From Okeania sp. (GTDB lineage Bacteria; Cyanobacteriota; Cyanobacteriia; Cyanobacteriales; Microcoleaceae), in assembly GCF_035285525.1 (NCBI RefSeq), contig NZ_JAYKGW010000116.1:1-15449 (forward strand): DNA of 15,449 nucleotides. Reading direction: 5' to 3'. The notes beneath the pieces were generated by a model that searched no databases, was not told the DNA's origin, and saw nothing but the letters and a program-made list of their open reading frames with translations. Made by a program: the position numbers and the translations under genes. Positions 3,016-15,449 of this stretch are shown here, in pieces. The first letter of the stretch is position 1, and each line of letters begins with the position of its first letter.

Positions 3016-3171
3016 GTATTTAAGTAAGCATTCAACCTTTAGCTATCAGCTATTGGTTATAGAATATTTTCCCCAACTAAAGCTCTTAAGTCGTCTTCAA
3101 GATGACTAAGTAAGTGTCAACCATTGTGGGTTATTCATCGCTCTCAAAAATTAGCGATCACGCCCGACGAG

Positions 3172-3248
3172 ACTCAGAAACCCGGTTTCTTAAAAAAACC
3201 GGGTTTCTCTTGCTCATCCCCATTATTCATTATTCATTATTCATTATC
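3172..3248. repeat. Dispersed hairpin element ACTCAGAAACCCGGTTTCTTAAAAAAACCGGGTTTCTCTTGCTCATCCCCATTAT followed by heptamer array CATTATT x4. It sits immediately 3' of the M16 peptidase gene and may act as a terminator or RNA-stability hairpin.
   Basis: A 13-bp stem (AGAAACCCGGTTT / AAACCGGGTTTCT) spans 3176-3208. The same hairpin plus CTCTTGCTCATCCCCATTAT tail recurs at 1489-1539. Heptamers at 3221-3248 abut the stop codon (3248-3250). No U-tract follows, so a terminator role is unproven. Confidence 0.8.
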
Positions 3249-4555
3249 TATCTACTCCTTACTTTAGGTACAAACGTTACTAACCTGTAAGCATTAACAG
3301 ATAAATATTTTAATGCTGCTTGTTGAATATCTGATGAGTCAAGCGCCTGAATATTCTGAGGATAATTGAGTGCTGCTCCTAAATCTCCGATCATTGACTG
3401 ATAGTAACCATATAAATTTGCGCGATCGCTTGGTGTCTCATTCGCAAAAATAAACCTATTCGCTACCAATGTCCGAATACGTTTCATTTCTGTTTCTGTT
3501 ACTGACTCTTGTTGGATAGTATGAATGTGATGAGCGATCGCTGTTTCGACTTCAGCTAAATTTTGTTCTGGCAGTCTAGCGGAGATATAGAAAACACCTT
3601 GATAACGATAACTTGTATTACTGACGCCAATAGAAAAAACCAAACCTCTTTCTTCCCTTAAGTCACACACTAGACGAGATGTTTTCCCCCGACTCAAAAT
3701 AGTTGCTAACACATCTAAGGCATAAGTTTCTTGTAACTGGGTTAACCCAGGTACACGCCAAATCATGGTTAATCTTGCTTGTTGAAGAGCGTCATCAACC
3801 ACTTCATGGCGGACTATTTTTGTAAAAGGTGATTCTGGTGTAAGGTTAATTTTAGGTGATGGTGATCTTGGTGAAACATTTTTACCATTGTTCGCTTCTG
3901 CAAATGAATCTGTAACTATATCAATTAATTCTTCTACTGGTAAATTACCGACTACCGCAGCAGTCATAGAATTAGGTTGATAGCAACTTTGGTGAAAATC
4001 ACGCATTTGTTGAGCTTGTAGTTGAGAAATAATTTCTGCTGTCCCTAATACTTGACGACGATAAGGCAATTTTTCAAAGGCAGTTTCAATGACTTTTCGA
4101 TAACAACGACGATTAAGGTTGTCATTTGAGCGCCGGATTTCTTCAAGTACAACAGAGCGCTCTCTTTCAAAATCATCATCAGCAATACTGGGGTTCAGTA
4201 GCACTTCCCATTGCAAAGGTGCTAATTTAGCAAAGTCTTTAGGAGCGCTGGTGATGTAAAAATGGGTGTATTCTTGACTGGTGGCAGCGTTCATTACAGC
4301 ACCTTTTTGTTCGACTAAACGTTCAAATTCTCCACTAGGAAGTTTGGGAGTACCTTTGAAAATTATATGTTCCAGAAAATGGGCCATGCCATTGATGGAT
4401 TCGGTTTCGATGGCAGAACCAATATTAAGCCAAATATTGAGATTGACAGCTTCAACTGGCAGGTGTTCGGCAATTATGGTTAGTCCATTGGGTAGTTGAC
4501 GAATAGTTGGGGCGTTGAGGGATTTGATGGTTGATGGTACTAAAGTTGAGGTCAT
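3248..4555 (-). CDS. M16 family (pitrilysin/insulinase-like) zinc metallopeptidase
   Basis: 435-aa ORF with the inverted zinc-binding motif HxxEH in GMAHFLEHIIFKGT. A downstream Glu-rich segment (VVLEEIRR) is typical of active M16B subunits. Length and two-domain layout are consistent with this family. Confidence 0.9.
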   Translation of the reverse strand: MTSTLVPSTIKSLNAPTIRQLPNGLTIIAEHLPVEAVNLNIWLNIGSAIETESINGMAHFLEHIIFKGTPKLPSGEFERLVEQKGAVMNAATSQEYTHFYITSAPKDFAKLAPLQWEVLLNPSIADDDFERERSVVLEEIRRSNDNLNRRCYRKVIETAFEKLPYRRQVLGTAEIISQLQAQQMRDFHQSCYQPNSMTAAVVGNLPVEELIDIVTDSFAEANNGKNVSPRSPSPKINLTPESPFTKIVRHEVVDDALQQARLTMIWRVPGLTQLQETYALDVLATILSRGKTSRLVCDLREERGLVFSIGVSNTSYRYQGVFYISARLPEQNLAEVETAIAHHIHTIQQESVTETEMKRIRTLVANRFIFANETPSDRANLYGYYQSMIGDLGAALNYPQNIQALDSSDIQQAALKYLSVNAYRLVTFVPKVRSR

Positions 4556-4688: not shown

Positions 4689-4753
4689 GTAGGGGCGGGT
4701 TTTACCCAGAATTTTCATGGTTACTTCAAGATTTATATAAACCCGCCCCCTAG
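4689..4753. repeat. REP/REPIN-like hairpin element, GC-type (GTAGGGGCGGGTTT...AAACCCGCCCCC)
   Basis: The 11-bp arms GGGGCGGGTTT and AAACCCGCCCC are separated by about 40 nt, with a 5' GTAG. It belongs to the same family as 6873-6937 and 13701-13766. Confidence 0.85.
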
Positions 4754-4760
4754 GAAAGTT

Positions 4761-4885
4761 GGCTATATCATTAGGGGCTGGTTTAGCTAACTTAATGGGT
4801 GAAAACTCGTTGTACGGACGTATCACTGCTCGACATGAAACGCATTTTTGTTATGCAACGTCCCTAGGGTCAAACCTTCCCCTAC
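4761..4885. repeat. Degenerate REP-like hairpin (AGGGGCTGGTTTAGCTAACTTA...CAAACCTTCCCCTAC) whose loop is interrupted by a 54-bp nested palindromic insert (4813-4866)
   Basis: GCTATATCATTAGGGGCTGGTTTAGCTAACTTAATGGGTGAAAACTC aligns with 6944-6990 and 7008-7046. The extra segment TACGGACGT...ACGTCCCTA has its own inverted ends and is absent from the intact copies. Confidence 0.7.
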
Positions 4886-5180: not shown

Positions 5181-5199
5181 ACTCAGAAACCCGGTTTCT
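5181..5199. repeat. Single copy of the palindromic element ACTCAGAAACCCGGTTTCT. Degenerate copies occur at 4633-4651 and just downstream.
   Basis: Same prefix and palindrome as at 3172-3190. Confidence 0.8.
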
Positions 5200-5331: not shown

Positions 5332-6876
5332 ATGTCCTTGAAAAAGACTATACAAAAATCAAAAATTGTGGTATGTGGCGCGGGTATTGGTGGCCTCACT
5401 ACAGCAGCATTATTGGCCAAGCGAGGCTACGAAGTCCAGATATTTGACCAAGCGATTGTTCCTGGCGGTTGTGCTTCAACTTTCAAACGACGGGGTTTCA
5501 CTTTTGATGTTGGTGCCACTCAAGTGGCAGGTTTGGAACCTGGTGGCATTCATCACCGTATTTTCTCAGAATTGGAAATAGACATCCCGAACGCTACCCA
5601 TTGCGATCCTGCTTGTGCGGTATTTCTCCCTGGTGAAATTGAACCTATAAGCGTTTGGCGCGACCCCAAAAAATGGCAGTCAGAAAGACAACGACAATTT
5701 CCTGGAAGCGAACCTTTTTGGCAGTTAATGACTAAACTGTTTGAGGCAAGTTGGAAGTTTCAAGGACGGGATCCAGTTTTGCCTCCGCGAAATATCTGGG
5801 ATATATGGCAGTTAGTGAAAGCATTGCGTCCGGATACTTTAATTACAGTGCCTTTTACTTTAATGACGGTAGCAGATGCGTTGCGGTTGTATGGTTTATA
5901 TGATAATCTGCGGTTGAAAACTTTTTTAGATTTACAACTGAAACTTTATTCTCAAGTTGGCACGGAGGAAACAGCTTTACTTTATGCTGCTACTGCTTTA
6001 GCTGTTTCTCAAGCTCCTCAAGGTTTGTATCATCTTGAGGGGAGTATGCAGGTTTTGAGCGATCGCCTAGTTGCAGCTCTAGAAAGAGATGGAGGTAAGT
6101 TATTCATGGGTCATACTGTTGAACAGATATATACAGATAATGGCAAAGCTAATGGGGTGAAAATTAGAAATCAGAAAACTGGGGAAACTTGGGTAGAAAC
6201 TGCTGATCATGTTGTGGCAAATGTCACTGTACAAAATTTAGTGAAATTAGTGGCAGAGGAAAATAGAGCCCATACTTCACACCCAATACCTGGTTACAAA
6301 CGCCGAGTTGATAAGCTTCCGTCTCCCTGGGGTGCATTTGTGGTCTATTTGGGAGTTGATGAGAGCGCTATTCCCAAAAATTGTCCGCCTCATTTGCAAT
6401 TTTTCTATGATTATGACGGCCCTATTGGGGAAAATAATTCTTTGTTTGTGTCGGTGAGTCATCCGGGAGACGGTCGCGCCCCTGATGGTAAAGCGACAAT
6501 TACTGCTTCTAGTTTTACCGATATTCAGATTTGGCGACATTGTAAAGATTATCAGGAGTTGAAGCAGAAATATACAGAAGAAGCGATCGCTCGTTTAAGT
6601 GGATATTTTGATTTAAAACCAGAAATGATAGTTCATCAGGAAGCTGGAACACCTCGTACTTTTGTGAAATTTACGGCACGGGATGAGGGCATTGTTGGCG
6701 GTGTTGGTCAACGTGTGGCAAATTTCGGACCTTTTGGAATTGCGAATCGAACACCTATTCAGGATTTGTGGTTAGTGGGAGATTCGACTCATCCGGGAGA
6801 GGGTACAGCGGGGGTGTCTTATTCAGCGTTAACTGTAGTGCGACAGATTGAAAAAGTAGGAAGTAGGAATATGTAG
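5332..6876 (+). CDS. crtD: FAD-dependent oxidoreductase of the phytoene-desaturase (CrtI) superfamily, most like cyanobacterial carotenoid C-3',4' desaturase CrtD
   Basis: 514-aa ORF. It has an N-terminal Rossmann dinucleotide motif VVCGAGIGGLTTAALLAKRG..E....PGG. CASTFKRRGFTFDVGATQVAGLEPGGIH and the C-terminal WLVGDSTHPGEGTAGVSYSA are patterns I associate with CrtD-type rather than CrtH/CrtISO-type enzymes. The subfamily assignment is from memory and is not verified. Confidence 0.7.
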   Translation: MSLKKTIQKSKIVVCGAGIGGLTTAALLAKRGYEVQIFDQAIVPGGCASTFKRRGFTFDVGATQVAGLEPGGIHHRIFSELEIDIPNATHCDPACAVFLPGEIEPISVWRDPKKWQSERQRQFPGSEPFWQLMTKLFEASWKFQGRDPVLPPRNIWDIWQLVKALRPDTLITVPFTLMTVADALRLYGLYDNLRLKTFLDLQLKLYSQVGTEETALLYAATALAVSQAPQGLYHLEGSMQVLSDRLVAALERDGGKLFMGHTVEQIYTDNGKANGVKIRNQKTGETWVETADHVVANVTVQNLVKLVAEENRAHTSHPIPGYKRRVDKLPSPWGAFVVYLGVDESAIPKNCPPHLQFFYDYDGPIGENNSLFVSVSHPGDGRAPDGKATITASSFTDIQIWRHCKDYQELKQKYTEEAIARLSGYFDLKPEMIVHQEAGTPRTFVKFTARDEGIVGGVGQRVANFGPFGIANRTPIQDLWLVGDSTHPGEGTAGVSYSALTVVRQIEKVGSRNM

Positions 6877-6937
6877 GGGCGGGTTTCACCAGAAATTTTC
6901 ATGGCTACTCTAGGGTTTACACAAACCCGCCCCGTTA
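6873..6937. repeat. REP/REPIN-like hairpin, GC-type. Its GTAG overlaps the crtD stop codon.
   Basis: GTAGGGGCGGGTTTCACCAGAAATTTTCATGG...ACACAAACCCGCCCCGTTAG. The stop codon TAG at 6874-6876 is the TAG of the conserved GTAG. Confidence 0.9.
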
Positions 6938-6951
6938 GAGGGTGCGCTATA

Positions 6952-7075
6952 TCATGGGGGGCGGGTTGAGCTGACTTATCGGTGAAGACTCCTTAACTTA
7001 ATTAATTTCATGGGGGCGGGTTGAGCTGACTTATCGGTGAAGACTCCTTAACTCACTTGTGAAACCCGCCCCTAC
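6952..7075. repeat. REP-like element with a duplicated left arm (two 46-47-bp direct copies at 6952 and 7008) and a single right arm (AAACCCGCCCCTAC, 7062-7075)
   Basis: TCATGGGGG(G)CGGGTTGAGCTGACTTATCGGTGAAGACTCCTTAACT appears twice and is followed by CACTTGTGAAACCCGCCCCTAC. Confidence 0.9.
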
Positions 7076-7946: not shown

Positions 7947-7959
7947 TACAGTTATTTTA

Positions 7960-7994
7960 GGGAATAGGGAGTAGGGAGTAGAGAGTAGGAAAGA
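7960..7994. repeat. STRR-like heptamer array (GGGAATA GGGAGTA GGGAGTA GAGAGTA GGAAAGA)
   Basis: Read directly. It starts 14 bp upstream of the proposed IMPase start codon. Confidence 0.9.
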
Positions 7995-8176
7995 GCAAGC
8001 TATTAGCTGCCAGTTATTCCTTTCCTGCGGAATGCTGCCCAAACGGAATGTTATACAAACAGCAAACCCCATCTAAACCTGAAAATGGCTTTATAATAAA
8101 TATAACCTTTAAAGTCGGCTTTGATAGTAATATCCATTAGAATATCACTACTTTTACAGTTATCAGCTATTAACTA

Positions 8177-8267
8177 CAGGACTTACGCAAAGGTACTAAA
8201 TATAGAGTAAAAAACTACCAGTGCCATAGTTTTAAGCACTATATCTAGGGTCGTTGCGTAAGTCCTG
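8177..8267. mobile_element. 91-bp MITE-like palindromic element, copy 2 (perfect 14-bp TIR CAGGACTTACGCAA / TTGCGTAAGTCCTG), inserted within a CAGCTAT/TAACTAT heptamer array
   Basis: It aligns with 2481-2571 over its full length. The flanks are ..TATCAGCTATTAACTA[element]AACTATTAACTATTAGCTACCAGCTATTC. Confidence 0.85.
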
Positions 8268-8365
8268 AACTATTAACTATTAGCTACCAGCTATTCATTT
8301 GGTAATGATGGAATTATTATAGAGCATCCTGCTCGCGGAAGTCTATAACTCTTAGCAACCCTATT

Positions 8366-8418
8366 CCCCTACTCCCCTACTCCCCTACTCCCCTACTCTT
8401 TACTCTTTACTCTTTACT
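8366..8418. repeat. Short tandem repeats: octamer CCCCTACT x4, then heptamer CTTTACT x3
   Basis: Read directly. The UPF0182 stop codon (8414-8416) lies inside the last heptamer. Confidence 0.9.
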
Positions 8419-11400
8419 GAAAAACTTCTTGAAGTGCTTCATCAAGAGTAGATTTCATAACAACTCGGTTTTGATAAGAAACGATTACTCTTGCTAAAGT
8501 TGGCAAGCTATTTTGCTCTGCTTCTAAATAAATAGGTTCAACATAAAGCAAAGATTTATTAATAGGAATTACTAATAAATTTCCTTGAATCGCTTTTGAA
8601 CCTTCACGATTCCAAAGAGAAATTTGCTGTGATATTTCTGGGTTTTGATTAATCAAAGCTTCAACTTGTTCTGGACCGTATATTAATCGTTGTTTAGGGA
8701 ATTGATATAACAATAATTTACCATAATTTTTCCCATCCGATCTAGCAGCTAACCAAGCAATTAAGTTATTACGACTTGCTGGAGTATAAGGTCGAAGTAA
8801 AATAAATTCTTCTGAGATTTCTTCTGGTAATTTTGTAATTAGATAATAAGGTTCTACTGTTTGTTGTTGATTACCATAGATTTCAATAGGTACTCGCCAC
8901 AAATCTTCTCGATTATAAAATACTCGGGGGTCATCCATGTGATAAGTTGATAATACTTCAGATTGTACTTTAAATAAATCTAATGGATAGCGAATATGAA
9001 CACGAATACTGGTTGGCATTTCTGCTATAGAATTAAACATATTTGGAAATACTTTTTTCCAAGTTTTAATAATAGGGTCTTTGGGGTCAGATACATAGAA
9101 TTTAATTGAGCCATTATAAGCATCAATTACAACTTTTACTGAGTTCCGAATGTAATTAAATTCATTATTTTCTGGGTCAGAATAAGGATAGTGATTACTT
9201 GTAGTGTAAGCATCAATAATCCAGTAGAGATGATTAGGAGTTGTTTGGGCAATATTTTGATTACTAAAGTTAGGATTAGCTACAACTAAATAGGGGTCAC
9301 TATCATAACGTAAAAATGGAGCGATCGCTCGGACTCTAGCATTAATATTGCGACGATATAATACTTTTGTTTGTGGTATAAATTCATCAGTAAATAACAT
9401 TCTCCAGTTCTTCAAATATTTAGCAAATATCCATCTTTTCCACCCTCTACCAATCACAATTCCGCCACTGCCATCATAAGTATTATAAGAGTTTGCTTCT
9501 CCACTGGGATAGTCTAATTCTCTATCTTTTTCGGCGGTAGAAGTAATAACATCAGTATTAGTAAGTTCTCCATAATAAATTCTTGGTTTACCTATAGGAA
9601 TGCTGTTTCTAATCCTATTTGATACTTCTAAAGTGCTATTTTTTTCTAAAGCTGGATCTGGTCCGATATTTTTCACAAAATATTCTGGTAATCCACTTTT
9701 TTCAACTTGATTAACTGGGGAAATAGTAAAACCATAACCATGAGTATAGACTAAGTTTTGGTTGACCCAAGTTTGTGCTGGTTCAGGTACAGATTCATAG
9801 TTTAGTTCTCTAGCTGCGATAATTACTTGTTGTTTTTTTGTAGGGTTATCTAGTGTTATCTCTGACTCTTCTTTCAAAAATGTATAACGGTCAATATCAG
9901 CATTTAAAAATTCGTAGTAAGGTCGAATTTGTTGTAATTGTCGATTAGTTTGTAAGATTGGTCTTCCATCCCAAAGGCGAATATTTTCAATAATTAATTG
10001 ATTATTGATTAGGTCAGTATAGGTAAGTTTATTATTTGGATCAAAAAGTTTTACTTCTAATTTATCGACATCAATATAAGCTTTTTTAGTAAATTTAATA
10101 CTACGTTTAATATAAGGAATTTCTCGTTCTATTTCATTAGGTTGTACAATTGCCATTTGGGCAATTTTTGGAATTAACCAACCAGCAATTACTGCTACTG
10201 TTAAATACCATGTTAAGATGGCTCTTAATGAATAGCTATTGGCAAATAATTTAGCACTAAATTTTTTCTTTCTTTTTCTTTTACGACCTAGACGTATAAA
10301 CCATAAACTTATTTCAATATAACGTTGAATATTTTTGACTGAAAAAGTTGCTTGCCAAAATAGAAATAATGCTATTAATAATGCTAAAATAGCTAAAAAC
10401 AAATAAGCAGGAAACTGAACTTTGACATCAGTATAACCAGCACCATAAATTACCCCACGTTGAGAGTAAAGTAATTCAAAACAAGCGAGAAAGTAACTAA
10501 ATGCTATGGTTAATATTAAGCCTCCACCTAAAGCATGAAGATGTCTTTGTTGTGGTTCAGAAAATTGATAAAAGTTACCTTTATTTAGACTTTTTCCTGA
10601 AAGTAAATATATCAGTAAGCAAGCAATAAATCCATATAAAAATAATCCAATTAGCCAAAATTGTAGTAGTTGTAAAACTGGAAGTTGAAACACATAAAAG
10701 CTAATATCTATTTTAAATAAATCTTCTTTTTCGTTAAAGGGTATAGCATTCAATATCTGTAATATATTTGCCCAATGACTCGAAAGAATAAAACTAAAAA
10801 CTAAACTTAGGATTATGGCAAATACACTTAACCAAAATACAGGATGAATAATTACAACGATAAATAACAGAATAAACAATCCTAGTAACCAAGAGTTAGA
10901 TGGTATTTGATTTAATATTTGCAAAATTGAGTCTATGCTAAATTCTGATGGTATTCGTGGAGATACTTTAGCAAGTGTAAAATCAGGATGCCAATAATTA
11001 GTAAATATTTCTATATAATGAGTTAAAATTAATCCTACTAACAAAATTAATCCGAATATAAAAGATAATAATAAACCTAATCCTAGTGATGGTTCAATAT
11101 GCAATTTACTGGAAGGCATAGTAACTGGAGGAATTAGCATTATTTCTTCAGTTATTTCCATTTTACTATCTTGGTTGTTTGAATACTTAAATATATTTGC
11201 TATTCTCAAATTTACTAAAAAAAAGCTGGCTGTAATCAAAAAAGTAATTATCCAAATTGAAGTTTCTGTTTGTAATTTAGTTATTAATACAGGCAAATAA
11301 TTTAATTCTTCAAACCATAAATATTCAGCTAATATTTTGGTTGACAAGTCAAAGATTAACCATAAACACAATAAACTAATTAATATTATTAATATATGTA

Positions 11401-11467: not shown

Positions 11468-11483
11468 TAGTTATATTTTTTTA

Positions 11484-11518
11484 GGGAATAGGGAATAGGG
11501 AATAGGGAATAGGTATTA
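11484..11518. repeat. STRR-like heptamer array, GGGAATA x4 plus a degenerate copy, in the 5' leader of the UPF0182 gene
   Basis: Read directly. It lies 17 bp upstream of the start codon at 11467. Confidence 0.9.
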
Positions 11519-11828: not shown

Positions 11829-11925
11829 TTGAGTCCTACAATAGAAACCCTTGAGTCCTACAATAGAAACCGGGTTTCTGCTTTAAGAAACCGGGTTTCT
11901 GCTTTAAGAAACCGGGTTTTTGACT
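11829..11925. repeat. Compound tandem repeat: TTGAGTCCTACAATAGAAACCC x2 (22 bp), then AGAAACCGGGTTTCTGCTTTA x3 (21 bp). It abuts the stop codon of the histidine kinase gene.
   Basis: Copies start at 11829 and 11851, then at 11865, 11886 and 11907. Each 21-mer contains the palindromic 15-mer. It may act as a terminator or stabiliser hairpin cluster for the minus-strand kinase gene. Confidence 0.9.
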
Positions 11926-13577
11926 TAAGTAAGTGGTAATTTAACTGTAAATACACTTCCTTGTTCTAACTTAGAATAAACCTGAATATTTCCTCCCATT
12001 CCTTCTACTAAAGTTTTGACAATAGACAAACCTAAACCAGCTCCATTCCCAGCACGATTTCTTGCTTCATCACCTCGATAAAAACGTTCAAAAATCTTAG
12101 CTTGTTGTGACAAAGGAATTCCTTGACCTTGGTCACAAACCTGGATTATTGCTTCATTATTTTGTGTATAAACATTTAAAATAATAGAAGACTTTTCGTC
12201 AGAATATTTAACAGCATTATCTATTAAATTAAGCAAAACTTGTTTCAGACGATTTACGTCTGCTGTTATTTTAATTGATAAAAAATCTCCAGATTTATCA
12301 ACATATCTTTCCTTGACTTGACCAACATTTTTGGATTTTAAACTTAACTCACCACCCAGAAAATTATCATCCAAATTAATCTCTGAAGATAATTTATTAG
12401 AATTGTCAAAATCAAAACAAACTGAATTATTTACACCTGAACAAACTACATCTTTACCGAGACTAGATACTTTTTCTCCATTCACAATATTACCCTCATT
12501 TCCCAATCTCAAAATAATTTTTCTATCGCTACATTGCTTTGCCATTTCCACAACTTCCGCTACCAAATCATTCAGAACTACTAACTCTAAATGAAAGTGG
12601 ATTTGACCACTATCTGCTCTAGCTAACTCCAACAAATGTTTCAATAATTCAATCGTGCGTTGCGCTTCCCCAGAAGCAACCAAAATAGCCTCCTTCTGAG
12701 TTTCAGTCAAATTATTCCCCCGTCTCAAAATACTCTGCAAATACCCAGAAACAATAGTCAAAGGAGTTCTTAACTCGTGAGAAACATTACTGACAAATTC
12801 CCTTTGCTGTTCCCAAGAATCAGACAATCTACCTAACATAATATCTAAAGTTCTTGCCATCTCCTTCACCTCACTGGGAGCTTTTTCCAAAGAAACCCTT
12901 GCTTCAGCTAAACGATCGGCATTAATATTATCAGCAAGTTGACTAATCTGACACAGAGGTATGAGGGAACGCTTAACATAAATAGTAATCGCAACCGTCA
13001 CTGCCATTATTGCTAAAACACTAGCTATACTCATACTCATCACCATAGTCACTAACATCTCTCGATCGCGAGTAATGTCAGAAACAACATAAAGCTTACC
13101 AATATTTATGCCATTAACCGTGAGAGGACCGCTACATAAAACAAAATAGCGTCCATTCATTTCATGCACTAAAGATTTTTGTGGCATCTCATTGAGAGAC
13201 TTTAAAATGAAATGGTCAGTATCCTTCCGCAAACCTTGTGATTCAGCTAAAATCTCCCCATCCTGATTTTTGACCCAAAGAAATACATTAGCAATTGTTA
13301 AATTATTAATAGCTTTCTGCAAACTTTTGTTCGTATACCACATTTTGCTATACATTTCAACATCTTTAGGAAAACGTTCAGCCATCTGCTCAATCTTATG
13401 TTTGTGACTAACTAATAATAATTGCTGCATTTTCCAACTGGTCCACAATGCGACACTGCCTAGTCCTAATACGGAAAACAGGGCAATACCTACTGTGAGA
13501 CGTATTTGTAAGGATGATGAATCAAATTTCCATTGTTTGAGTTTTAAAATGTTTTGCTGTTTCACTGTAAACTTCAT
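11925..13577 (-). CDS. Membrane-bound sensor histidine kinase (two TM segments, HAMP, HisKA and HATPase_c) with a large insertion in the catalytic domain
   Basis: 550-aa ORF. TM1 is around residues 28-47, a periplasmic-type loop follows, and TM2 is around residues 176-200. The H-box is FVSNVSHELRTPLT (His268), the N-box is LLNLIDNAVKYS, G1 is DQGQGI, the F-box is FERFYRGD and G2 is GAGLGLSIV. No response regulator gene is adjacent in this window. Confidence 0.9.
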   Translation of the reverse strand: MKFTVKQQNILKLKQWKFDSSSLQIRLTVGIALFSVLGLGSVALWTSWKMQQLLLVSHKHKIEQMAERFPKDVEMYSKMWYTNKSLQKAINNLTIANVFLWVKNQDGEILAESQGLRKDTDHFILKSLNEMPQKSLVHEMNGRYFVLCSGPLTVNGINIGKLYVVSDITRDREMLVTMVMSMSIASVLAIMAVTVAITIYVKRSLIPLCQISQLADNINADRLAEARVSLEKAPSEVKEMARTLDIMLGRLSDSWEQQREFVSNVSHELRTPLTIVSGYLQSILRRGNNLTETQKEAILVASGEAQRTIELLKHLLELARADSGQIHFHLELVVLNDLVAEVVEMAKQCSDRKIILRLGNEGNIVNGEKVSSLGKDVVCSGVNNSVCFDFDNSNKLSSEINLDDNFLGGELSLKSKNVGQVKERYVDKSGDFLSIKITADVNRLKQVLLNLIDNAVKYSDEKSSIILNVYTQNNEAIIQVCDQGQGIPLSQQAKIFERFYRGDEARNRAGNGAGLGLSIVKTLVEGMGGNIQVYSKLEQGSVFTVKLPLT

Positions 13578-13700
13578 TTTGAGTCTTTTTTGCTAAAAAA
13601 TCATTGAACTACAATTATTATTAATTTAGCTATTTATTCTGAGAAAATCCTGATAATTATATGAGGTAGATATGGAATGAAGTAGTCAAATGATAGACAA

Positions 13701-13766
13701 TAGTAGGGGCGGGTTTGAGCTATAAGTTTCAGGCTTATTCTAGAATTTATATAAACCCGCCCTCAT
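13701..13766. repeat. REP/REPIN-like hairpin, GC-type (TAGTAGGGGCGGGTTTGAGC...TATATAAACCCGCCCTCAT)
   Basis: Same family as 4689-4753, including the shared loop end ATTTATATAAACCCGCC. The right arm carries one substitution. Confidence 0.85.
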
Positions 13767-13787
13767 GCACAAAATTAGTTCTTCCAG

Positions 13788-14650
13788 TAGATTTTTTAGA
13801 TTAATAGTATGGGGCAGGTTTAGTTCAATTAATGATTAAATTCATAATTTATTTGATAAATCTGCACCTACAATAATTAATTGAATTTAATAGATTTGGT
13901 TAAATTAATAGTATGGGGTAGGTTGAGTTCAATTAATAGTATGGGGAAGGTTGAGTTCAATTAATGATTAGATTCATAATTTATTTGATAAACCTGCACC
14001 TACAATAATTAATTGAATTTAATAGATTTTTTTAAATTAATAGTATGGGGTAGGTTTAGTTAAATTAATGGTATGGAGCAGGTTTAGTTAGATTAATGAT
14101 TAGATTCATAACTTACCTAGTAAACCTGCCCCTACGATATTTAATTTTCATCAAATTGGATAGATTTTTTTAGGTTAATAGTATAGGGCAGGTTTAGTTA
14201 AATTAATGATTAAATTCATAATTTATTTGATAAACCTGCCCCTACAATAATTAATTGAATTTAGTAGATTTTTAGATTAATAGTATGGGGCAGGTTTAGT
14301 TCAATTAATGATTAAATTCATAATTTATTTGATAAACCTGCACCTACAATAATTAATTGAATTTAATAGATTTTTTTAGGTTAATAGTATGGGGTAGGTT
14401 TAGTTAAATTAATGGTATGGGGCAGGTTGAGTTAGATTAATGATTAGATTCATAACTTACCTAATAAACCTGCCCCTACAATAATTAATGAAATTGGGTA
14501 GATTTTTTTAGGTTAATAATGGAAATTGTAATTTAATCGTATAGGTCAGGTTTGGTTAAATTAATAGTATGGGGCAGGTTGAGTTTAATTCATGATTAGA
14601 CTCATAACTTATTTGATTAACCTGCCCCTACAATTCAATTTATAAAATTT
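13788..14650. repeat. Tandem array of 7 AT-rich REP/REPIN-like units (about 102-150 bp each) with core GTATGGGGCAGGTTTAG...ATAAACCTGCCCCTAC. There are 11 left arms and 7 right arms.
   Basis: Units start at 13788, 13891, 14023, 14161, 14265, 14367 and 14499, each opening TAGATTT. Units 2, 3, 6 and 7 carry a 28-bp tandem duplication of the left arm. The units are homologous along their whole length, so there are no unique spacers. Confidence 0.9.
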
Positions 14651-14675
14651 GTAATATAATTTTTCTGATAAATCT

Positions 14676-15239
14676 ATGAAATATAATCCTAATTTTCATA
14701 ATCGTCAGTCAATTCGTTTAAAAGGATATGATTATAGCCAAGAAGGTTTCTATTTTGTTACCATTTGTATTTGGCAAAAAGAATGTTTATTAGGGGTTGT
14801 TGATAATCAAGAAATGTTTTTAAATAAGTATGGTGAAATTGTTAATTCTAATTGGTTTAATTTAAAAAAAGTTTATCCTTACATCAATCTTGATGCTTTT
14901 ATTGTTATGCCGAATCATATTCATGGAATTATTGAAATAACAGATGATAATCAACATCACACAAGACATGGTTTACCTGAAATTATTAGAGCGTTAAAAA
15001 CTTTTTCAGCCCGTAGAATTAATCGGTTACGACAAATGAAAGGTGTTCCGGTGTGGCAAAGAGGATATTATGAACACATTATCAGAAATGAAACATCATT
15101 AAATAGTATCAGAGAGTATATTTTTAATAATCCATTTAATTGGTGCAATGATGAAATTTATACAGAAAATTTATTTTCATTTCCTAAACAATTTAATATA
15201 AAAGGAATAGGAAATGTGATTAATAACCAAAAAAATTAA
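14676..15239 (+). CDS. rayT: REP-associated tyrosine transposase (RAYT; IS200-like Y1/HUH transposase, COG1943 type)
   Basis: 187-aa ORF. It has the N-terminal R..RLKGYDYS..G.YFVT.C pattern, the HUH motif in MPNHIHGIIEI and the catalytic-Tyr region WQRGYYEHIIRNE. The gene is bracketed by inverted GTAGGGG(C/T)(A/G)GGTT hairpin repeats. There is no tnpB or other IS partner. Confidence 0.85.
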   Translation: MKYNPNFHNRQSIRLKGYDYSQEGFYFVTICIWQKECLLGVVDNQEMFLNKYGEIVNSNWFNLKKVYPYINLDAFIVMPNHIHGIIEITDDNQHHTRHGLPEIIRALKTFSARRINRLRQMKGVPVWQRGYYEHIIRNETSLNSIREYIFNNPFNWCNDEIYTENLFSFPKQFNIKGIGNVINNQKN

Positions 15240-15449
15240 TCCGTAGGGGTGGGTTTCTCCAGAAAATTACGATACTTGAAAATAAGCTAAATCAACCCAC
15301 CCCCACACCACCATAAATTCCCAAAAATTAATCCGTAGGGGTGGGTTTCTCCAGAAAATTATGATACTTAAAAATAAGCTAAATCAACTCATCCCCTATT
15401 ACCATAAATTCCATAAAAATTAATCCGTAGGGGTGGGTTTCTCCAGAAA
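15231..15449. repeat. 92-bp tandem repeat, about 2.4 copies and truncated by the window end, of a REP-like hairpin (GTAGGGGTGGGTTTCTCCAGAAAATTA...CAACCCACCCCC)
   Basis: Copies start at 15231, 15323 and 15415. The first copy contains the rayT stop codon (15237-15239). The loop sequence CCAGAAA(A)TT resembles the GC-type elements at 4689 and 6873. Confidence 0.9.

Follow-up and report, generated by a model that had tools for sequence, protein, structure and literature searches.

What is the transposase-like gene at the right-hand end of a 15,449-nt contig of Okeania sp. (the window, which is the whole contig), and what does it have to do with the hairpin repeats that crowd it on both sides? We find that the locus is probably an Okeania REPtron, in which a domesticated repetitive extragenic palindrome (REP)-associated tyrosine transposase (RAYT, also called TnpAREP) lies between arrays of its probable substrate hairpins. 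An initial annotation of this DNA had proposed the RAYT as the cognate enzyme of a hairpin family with the core GGGGYRGGTT; family scores, motifs, predicted fold, orthologous loci and the enrichment of hairpins beside homologues in 84 loci support that pairing as probable.

The gene itself was annotated as an intact HUH/Y1 open reading frame (ORF) at 14676-15239 with an HIH motif, and this description stands: the 187-aa product (WP_324236664.1, labelled 'transposase [Okeania sp.]' in NCBI) carries NHIH at residues 80-83. Its top-ranked family is NCBIfam NF047646, REP_Tyr_transpos (74.7 bits, E = 6.7e-21), and Pfam Y1_Tnp scores 33.8 bits. The IS200 model NF033573 reaches 24.8 bits against a cut-off of 55, 50 bits under REP_Tyr_transpos, so the comparison of RAYT with IS200/IS605 models that the annotation had suggested favours a RAYT. 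The sole notable sequence match in the PDB is E. coli TnpAREP (4er8), and the same structure heads the Foldseek results (4er8_A, E = 1.4e-7), followed by the TnpA proteins of ISDra2 and IS608, when an AlphaFold model built on 31 homologues (pLDDT 78.8) is used as the query. Close Microcoleus relatives are named 'REP-associated tyrosine transposase' in UniRef.

Residue-level comparison refines the assignment. The HUH motif is N80-H81-I82-H83 (H81 codon 14916-14918, H83 codon 14922-14924), the WQ motif is W127-Q128, and the Y motif is Y148-I-F-N-N152-P153 (YIFNNP; Y148 codon 15117-15119). The published active site of TnpAREP consists of H59/H61, Y115 and N119 (4er8); aligned to it, Y148 corresponds to the catalytic Y115 and N152 to the metal ligand N119. 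The catalytic residues are kept, H81, H83, Y148, N152 and P153 being invariant in 31 aligned homologues. The tyrosine motif had originally been placed in GYYEHIIRNE, and this placement does not survive the alignment: that segment is present as part of a conserved WQ.GYYEH block, and the nucleophile lies elsewhere, in YIFNNP. Subclass 2.4 of the TnpAY1 proteins, equivalent to RAYT group 4, is defined by NH[IFV]H / WQ / YIxNNP and a length of ~194 aa (PMC6006769, PMC5581495), and the NHIH, WQ and YIFNNP motifs fit this signature exactly. The gene product is a domesticated, chromosomally fixed HUH/Y1 protein of subclass 2.4, with a single-strand-DNA nuclease-ligase activity predicted by analogy.

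The layout of the surrounding hairpins agrees closely with the annotation, which had counted seven tandem units upstream, the last right arm about 43 bp ahead of the ATG, 92-bp units running on from just past the stop codon, inverted GTAGGGG(C/T)(A/G)GGTT cores around the gene, and a GC-type sister element outside the array (found at 13703-13766). The elements fall into GC, TG and CA types, which differ at two adjacent stem positions and keep Watson-Crick pairing with their own right arms. Upstream, seven complete CA-type hairpins of ~65 nt (13807-14631; left arm GTATGGGGCAGGTT, right arm AACCTGCCCCTAC) end 44 nt before the ATG. Read on the minus strand each unit begins 5'-GTAGGGGCAGGTT, and the plus-strand 5' foot is GTAT. 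Four orphan left arms (at 13911, 14043, 14387 and 14539), each 28 nt upstream of a paired left arm, bring the total to 11 left arms against 7 right arms; the array repeats at periods of 102 and 132 nt. Downstream, the first GTAG follows 3 nt past the RAYT stop codon, at 15243; the right arm of the second TG-type unit is degenerate and the third unit stops at the contig end. The cores nearest the gene form an inverted pair: 14619-14631 reads GTAGGGGCAGGTT on the minus strand and 15243-15255 reads GTAGGGGTGGGTT on the plus strand. GTAG feet are on the minus strand upstream and on the plus strand downstream, so the gene sits between inverted feet directed towards it. The window thus presents one GC unit and seven CA units upstream of the RAYT and TG units downstream of it.

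These repeats are far from chance occurrences, GGGGYRGGTT being found 23 times in the window against 0.05 expected. As single-stranded DNA (ssDNA) the window's elements form hairpins with 10-11-bp stems and 34-40-nt loops, those of the GC and CA types reaching fold z-scores of -3 to -6. They share with classical REPs, bacterial interspersed mosaic elements (BIMEs) and REP doublets forming hairpins (REPINs) the 5' GTAG foot, the palindromic stem and the arrangement as inverted doublets, but at ~60 nt with loops of 34-40 nt they depart from the classical 20-40 bp and small loop. An Rfam scan covering the full window, at gathering thresholds, matched no family. In consensus scans of 13500-15449, promoter-like sites were scarcer than in shuffled sequence, terminators were absent, and no T-tracts of the terminator kind followed the hairpins. 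A CRISPR array was considered and rejected, given that the would-be spacers repeat together with the whole 102/132-nt and 92-nt units and that Rfam gave no match. The contig begins and ends in tandem repeats (a 51-nt unit x2.3 at 1-118 and 92-nt REP units at 15227-15449), where the assembly evidently broke.

Coordinates of the REPtron, of dispersed REP doublets in the window, and of RAYT orthologues in related genomes (MAG, metagenome-assembled genome)
Feature	Sequence	Position	Strand	Details
Single GC-type REP	Window	13703..13766	+	GTAGGGGCGGGTTT ... AAACCCGCCC; 10-bp stem, 36-nt loop; distal REPtron edge
CA-type REP array, 7 complete hairpins	Window	13807..14631	-	stems 10-11 bp, loops 34-38 nt
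CA hairpins, left to right foot	Window	13807-13871, 13939-14003, 14071-14135, 14181-14245, 14283-14347, 14415-14479, 14567-14631		
Leader between last CA hairpin and ATG	Window	14632..14675	+	44 nt
Intact RAYT / TnpAREP gene	Window	14676..15239	+	187 aa, ATG start; TnpAY1 subclass 2.4 = RAYT group 4
TG-type REP array	Window	15243..15449	+	GTAGGGGTGGGTT ... AACCCACCCC; 92-nt units starting at 15243, 15335 and 15427
GC-type REP doublet	Window	6873..7075	both	A 6873-6933, GTAG plus; orphan left arm 6958; B 7010-7075, GTAG minus
GC-type REP doublet	Window	4689..4885		A 4689-4749 intact, GTAG plus; inverted B 4771-4885 degenerate, interrupted by another palindrome
RAYT orthologue	L081, Trichodesmium MAG			83% aa identity
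RAYT orthologue	L082, metagenome contig			76% aa identity
RAYT orthologue	L083, Dapis BLCC M172	9881-10393		81% aa identity; in-frame stop
RAYT orthologue	L200, Okeania KiyG1			intact
RAYT orthologue	L201, Okeania SIO2B3	9900-10426		5'-truncated by ~17 codons; CA-type array lost

The association between hairpins and RAYT genes that the annotation had proposed extends across the family. We compared 84 loci, comprising 80 among the matches listed by a profile scan of representative genomes (cyanobacteria, Chloroflexota, Nitrospirota, Planctomycetota, Bacteroidota and others), the loci L081-L083, and the window. Counting GT[AG]G-footed hairpins whose stems measure 8 bp or more, and taking up to 600 nt as near the gene, the density of these foot-hairpins is 1.85 per kb near the gene and 0.19 per kb elsewhere, a roughly 10-fold enrichment. 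Of the 84 loci, 68 carry one or more foot-hairpins near the gene, and roughly one in three has at least four within 600 nt. The commonest hairpin beside the gene begins GTAGGGGC in 63 of these 68 loci, with the rest of the stem and the loop varying; the loops of most non-cyanobacterial loci measure 2-4 nt, those of cyanobacterial loci 34-41 nt. The same GC type that is dispersed in the window flanks homologues of 50-60% identity from Microcoleus, Phormidium, Calothrix and Chamaesiphon, and these GC-flanked homologues of other genera look like orthologues. The array that directly abuts the gene had been thought atypical; the enrichment across 84 loci instead indicates that arrays touching the gene are normal for the class, and the abutting array reaches ~1.9 kb in Okeania KiyG1 and flanks both sides of the gene in Dapis.

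The stem variants covary. Of 65 elements, 56 show complementarity at the two variable stem positions where 23 are expected, a count reached in 0 of 10,000 permutations. The 65 elements come from loci that were not selected for this pattern, metagenome loci chosen by their complementary pattern having been left out. Copies are related by descent, so this covariation should be read as at least three independent compensated switches rather than as 56 events. A fourth stem variant, CT/AG, occurs in Chamaesiphon. Pairing is kept through compensated changes: conservation extends beyond mere sequence to the hairpin. In Okeania, Trichodesmium and Dapis, the two REPs of the doublet that flanks the gene may each have diverged by a single compensated base-pair change from a GC stem that was ancestral, yielding the TG and CA types, which in this strain would then have become segregated, CA upstream and TG downstream of the gene.

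The gene behaves as a resident of the chromosome. In a profile scan of a genome collection the best identity among the matches listed was 60%, and closer relatives were reached by exact-protein look-ups (see table). A divergently oriented HisKA gene lies upstream of the RAYT in the Trichodesmium MAG, Dapis, KiyG1 and SIO2B3, and in the first two it is orthologous to that of the window (74-75% aa identity); hpsJ lies downstream in Dapis, KiyG1 and SIO2B3. The RAYT thus occupies the same position in five genomes of three genera (Okeania, Trichodesmium and Dapis, the window included). The four intact copies (window, KiyG1, Trichodesmium MAG and metagenome contig L082) share 82-90% nucleotide identity with dN/dS of 0.16-0.24. 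This shared position and low dN/dS describe the behaviour of a domesticated, vertically inherited gene, unlike that of an insertion sequence (IS), though one that decays in some lineages. In the four genomes with the upstream HisKA gene, a ~4-kb gene for a PAS/HisKA hybrid kinase separates it from the RAYT. This gene is missing from the window, and the junction at 13661-13702 shows no significant homology to it. The GC-type REP, which in the Okeania relatives follows the kinase stop codon, sits at the very junction in the window (13578-13702 region).

The content of the gene's arrays is highly variable, as the proposed comparison of sister strains revealed. The Trichodesmium MAG, the metagenome contig and Dapis carry alternating TG hairpins (GTAG on the plus strand) and CA hairpins (GTAG on the minus strand), forming one to five inverted REP doublets. 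These lie on both sides of the gene in the latter two and upstream in the former, where a further one starts on the downstream side and the contig then ends. Upstream of the gene in KiyG1 stand 13 GC-type units (8075-9400), in which an 18-nt segment of foot plus left arm is multiplied two to six times ahead of one right arm, and then five CA-type units of 113 nt (9447-9960), each repeating the RAYT leader as far as the AT of the start codon. One GC-type unit lies upstream in SIO2B3, so that the REPtrons of the three Okeania loci contain 1 (window), 13 (KiyG1) and 1 (SIO2B3) GC units, all at an equivalent position, which in the window is the distal edge. Short direct repeats, AATTAAT among them, border the array units and half-unit duplications. 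The window is therefore one state of a very plastic REPtron, with two REP types segregated.

Related elements are also found away from the gene. Outside the REPtron, copies in the window are of the GC type only and include the two doublets listed in the table. The TAG stop codon of crtD (5332-6876) lies within the GTAG foot of the 6873-7075 doublet, and the C-terminus of its product is unlike that of relatives. This doublet is absent 3' of crtD in Okeania SIO3I5 (L202) and Trichodesmium MAG_R01 (L203), which carry another short double-foot GTAG palindrome there (GTAGGGACGTTCCATGGAACGTCCCTAC in the former, the related TAGGGACATTC...GAAATGTCCCTAC in the latter). TG-type hairpins occur in 116 metagenome stretches, with a RAYT homologue in the fetched DNA of 7 of these, and TG/CA doublets and small arrays lie at distances of kilobases from the nearest RAYT, as in metagenome contigs L104 and L197. 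Eight homologues (P0039, P0045, P0088, P0101, P0109, P0113, P0119 and P0120) contain GAGL...KPAPT inserts that are the translation of the REP arms GGGGCGGGTTT / AAACCCGCCCCTAC, indicating that REPs have inserted inside RAYT genes.

By analogy with the TnpAREP proteins of E. coli, Stenotrophomonas and Marinomonas, the Okeania RAYT would bind the folded ssDNA hairpin through its 5' GTAG foot and G-rich stem (GTAGGGGYRGGTT). It would then cut beside the hairpin by means of Y148, with a metal held by H81, H83 and N152, and rejoin the strand elsewhere. The expected outcome would be the copying of REP hairpins into intergenic DNA, mostly as inverted A/B doublets of ~200 nt. The arrays touching the gene may represent local amplifications of the substrate; unequal recombination or slippage between units is the simplest explanation for them, possibly with a contribution from aberrant strand transfer by the RAYT. 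Such reshuffling would produce strong differences in the arrays between strains.

Several observations weigh against the REPtron reading. The TG-type hairpins fold weakly in the window (z = -1.8 and -0.9), and the 74.7-bit score for REP_Tyr_transpos falls narrowly below that model's equivalog cut-off of 80. Two of the six orthologues, those of Dapis and SIO2B3, are pseudogenes that keep their adjoining hairpins, so arrays persist without the enzyme. The half-hairpin duplications have boundaries that differ by strain (28 nt in the window and 18 nt in KiyG1), as would be expected of slippage more than of cleavage at a specific site. For this strain, the counts of hairpin variants and RAYT genes cover the 15.4-kb contig. 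Finally, binding, cleavage site and strand transfer are all carried over from groups 2 and 3 (PMC8266576, PMC3479197).

Could the hairpins be ordinary palindromes or repeats like miniature inverted-repeat transposable elements (for example terminators or mRNA stabilisers), amplified by slippage or recombination beside a RAYT that is a relic or never acts? The arrays that outlast the two decayed orthologues would suit this explanation, as would the strain-specific boundaries of units and half-units with their short direct repeats alongside, and the window also holds palindromes of another, unrelated family, GAAACCSGGTTTC, for which there is no RAYT. We nevertheless consider it quite improbable. 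Foot-hairpins are enriched 10-fold beside RAYT homologues in 84 loci across many phyla, with the first 8 nt (GTAGGGGC) conserved; the intact orthologues are under purifying selection, their catalytic residues are invariant, and the hairpins are not trailed by terminator-like T-tracts. It is very unlikely, in turn, that the locus is an autonomous IS200/IS605-type IS that transposes as a whole unit with the hairpins of the two sides as its ends. The protein shares the Y1_Tnp fold of such elements, the TnpA proteins of ISDra2 and IS608 are the next-best structural matches, and hairpins do lie close to both ends of the gene (44 nt and 3 nt). However, an IS of this kind is contradicted by the IS200 model score, by motifs that read NHIH / WQ / YIFNNP and not DH[VI]H / W[TS] / Y[IV]ENQ (subclass 1.1), by flanking hairpins that are inverted and many-fold rather than one left end and one right end on the same strand, by the lack of tnpB, and by the shared chromosomal position in Okeania, Trichodesmium and Dapis with 82-90% nucleotide identity among the four intact copies. 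We rejected it on these grounds of motifs, model scores, flank orientation and synteny.

A different division of labour, in which each stem variant has its own RAYT paralogue, would leave the enzyme of the window serving the TG and CA types and the dispersed GC type to a second, unseen RAYT. In Okeania, however, the GC type is part of the RAYT gene's own REPtron, present at all three loci, and no second RAYT was seen in the Okeania, Trichodesmium and Dapis stretches examined, where we found no evidence for a separate paralogue per variant. The observation that homologues of 50-60% identity (Microcoleus, Phormidium and Calothrix) are flanked by GC elements only, and the 76-83% clade by TG/CA elements, is what this idea would predict, as is the presence of GC copies alone outside the REPtron in the window; but the GC-flanked homologues belong to other genera and look like orthologues, and we regard separate paralogues as quite unlikely. 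One further reading goes beyond the REPtron that we favour. The Okeania and Trichodesmium REPtrons could be a natural record of a group 4 RAYT acting in cis, with variable arrays, multiplied 5' half-hairpins (foot plus left arm, two to six copies) and leader-copying units arising from repeated cleavage and strand transfer at the foot rather than from slippage. In that case the A/B hairpins, with their long loops (34-40 nt) and adjacent compensated stem changes, would form a separate substrate class, not yet described. We think this unlikely; if true, these hairpins could probe how subclass 2.4 reads the stem sequence.

How does this locus compare with systems already described? The annotation held that REP/RAYT biology has been worked out almost wholly in proteobacteria. 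This is right for the biochemistry, which to date covers proteobacterial groups 2 and 3 only (PMC8266576), but cyanobacterial group 4 had already been described: group 4 / subclass 2.4 is common in cyanobacteria (PMC5581495, PMC6006769), in which GTAG REPs, REPtrons and tandemly reiterated REP clusters have been reported (PMC3733652). Members of subclass 2.4 are flanked by long REPs with three G-C pairs at the stem bottom and also by 'double-foot' REPs (5' GT[AG]G ... C[TC]AC 3'), and the genes often contain in-frame REP insertions (PMC6006769). The Okeania locus resembles them in its motif signature, length of ~190 aa, cyanobacterial host, G-C stem bottom and 5' GT[AG]G foot. In contrast to them, its gene has no internal REP, and its flanking REP types differ by adjacent compensated pair changes and are segregated to opposite sides of the gene; its 34-40-nt loops on the GTAGGGGC stem also differ from the 2-4-nt loops of most non-cyanobacterial members.

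A second system for comparison is the E. coli K-12 REPtron (TnpAREP / YafM with Y, Z1 and Z2 REPs and BIMEs; 4er8; PMC3333891, PMC3479197). Common to both are the HUH/Y1 fold, one catalytic tyrosine on helix alpha-D, the 5' GTAG foot, inverted pairs of two related REP types flanking the gene, further REPs between genes (in Okeania, the two doublets of the window), and a vertically inherited gene, single-copy in E. coli and seen once in the 15.4-kb Okeania contig. The two proteins are 19% identical, and that of E. coli belongs to subclass 2.2, group 2 (DHLH / WE / YIHYNP). Its REPs are imperfect palindromes of ~35 nt that contain a bulge and a short loop, whereas those of Okeania are longer-looped; activity has been demonstrated for the E. 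coli type and group 3 only. The TnpA proteins of IS608 and ISDra2 share the HUH/Y1 fold, the recognition of ssDNA hairpins (predicted for Okeania) and a guide tetranucleotide 5' of the hairpin, but the Okeania locus differs in its motif signature and its inverted, reiterated flanks, is probably not a multi-copy mobile unit, and has no TnpB. Also comparable are GTAG-12, -15 and -16 (PMC3733652), GTAG palindromes that occur in filamentous and unicellular cyanobacteria as singletons, dimers and tandem clusters, with REPtrons present; the GGGGYRGGTT family was compared with these by description, and Okeania and Trichodesmium fall outside that survey. A Trichodesmium transcriptome paper (PMC4143802) does not mention the hairpins.

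Two other kinds of repeat were observed in the window. The palindrome family GAAACCSGGTTTC occurs at 10 sites (20 strand matches) against 0.03 expected by chance, in regions 1397-1520, 3177-3207 (inside a short ORF at 3114-3290), 5186-5198 and 11866-11920. Its copies are partly arranged in tandem units of 21-93 nt, and no associated gene is evident. Short tandem heptamers and octamers, mostly intergenic (such as TAGGGAA x4.6 and CCCTACTC x5), lie at 11482-11513, 8359-8398, 1251-1275, 3221-3247, 7958-7989 and other sites; we take them to be the short tandemly repeated sequences typical of filamentous cyanobacteria.

Together, these findings identify the locus as a clean, fresh example of a class already catalogued in cyanobacteria and not as a new kind of system, and they leave the current picture of RAYT/REP biology unchanged. 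Its arrays have practical effects, in that they break assemblies (this contig ends in one) and alter gene ends, as where a REP foot supplies the stop codon of crtD. The locus adds a well-resolved REPtron to group 4 / subclass 2.4 and puts natural substrate variants at hand, with GC, TG and CA stems, A/B loops, and single and double feet. It also reveals array polymorphism between strains in an ecologically important clade, that of Okeania and Trichodesmium.

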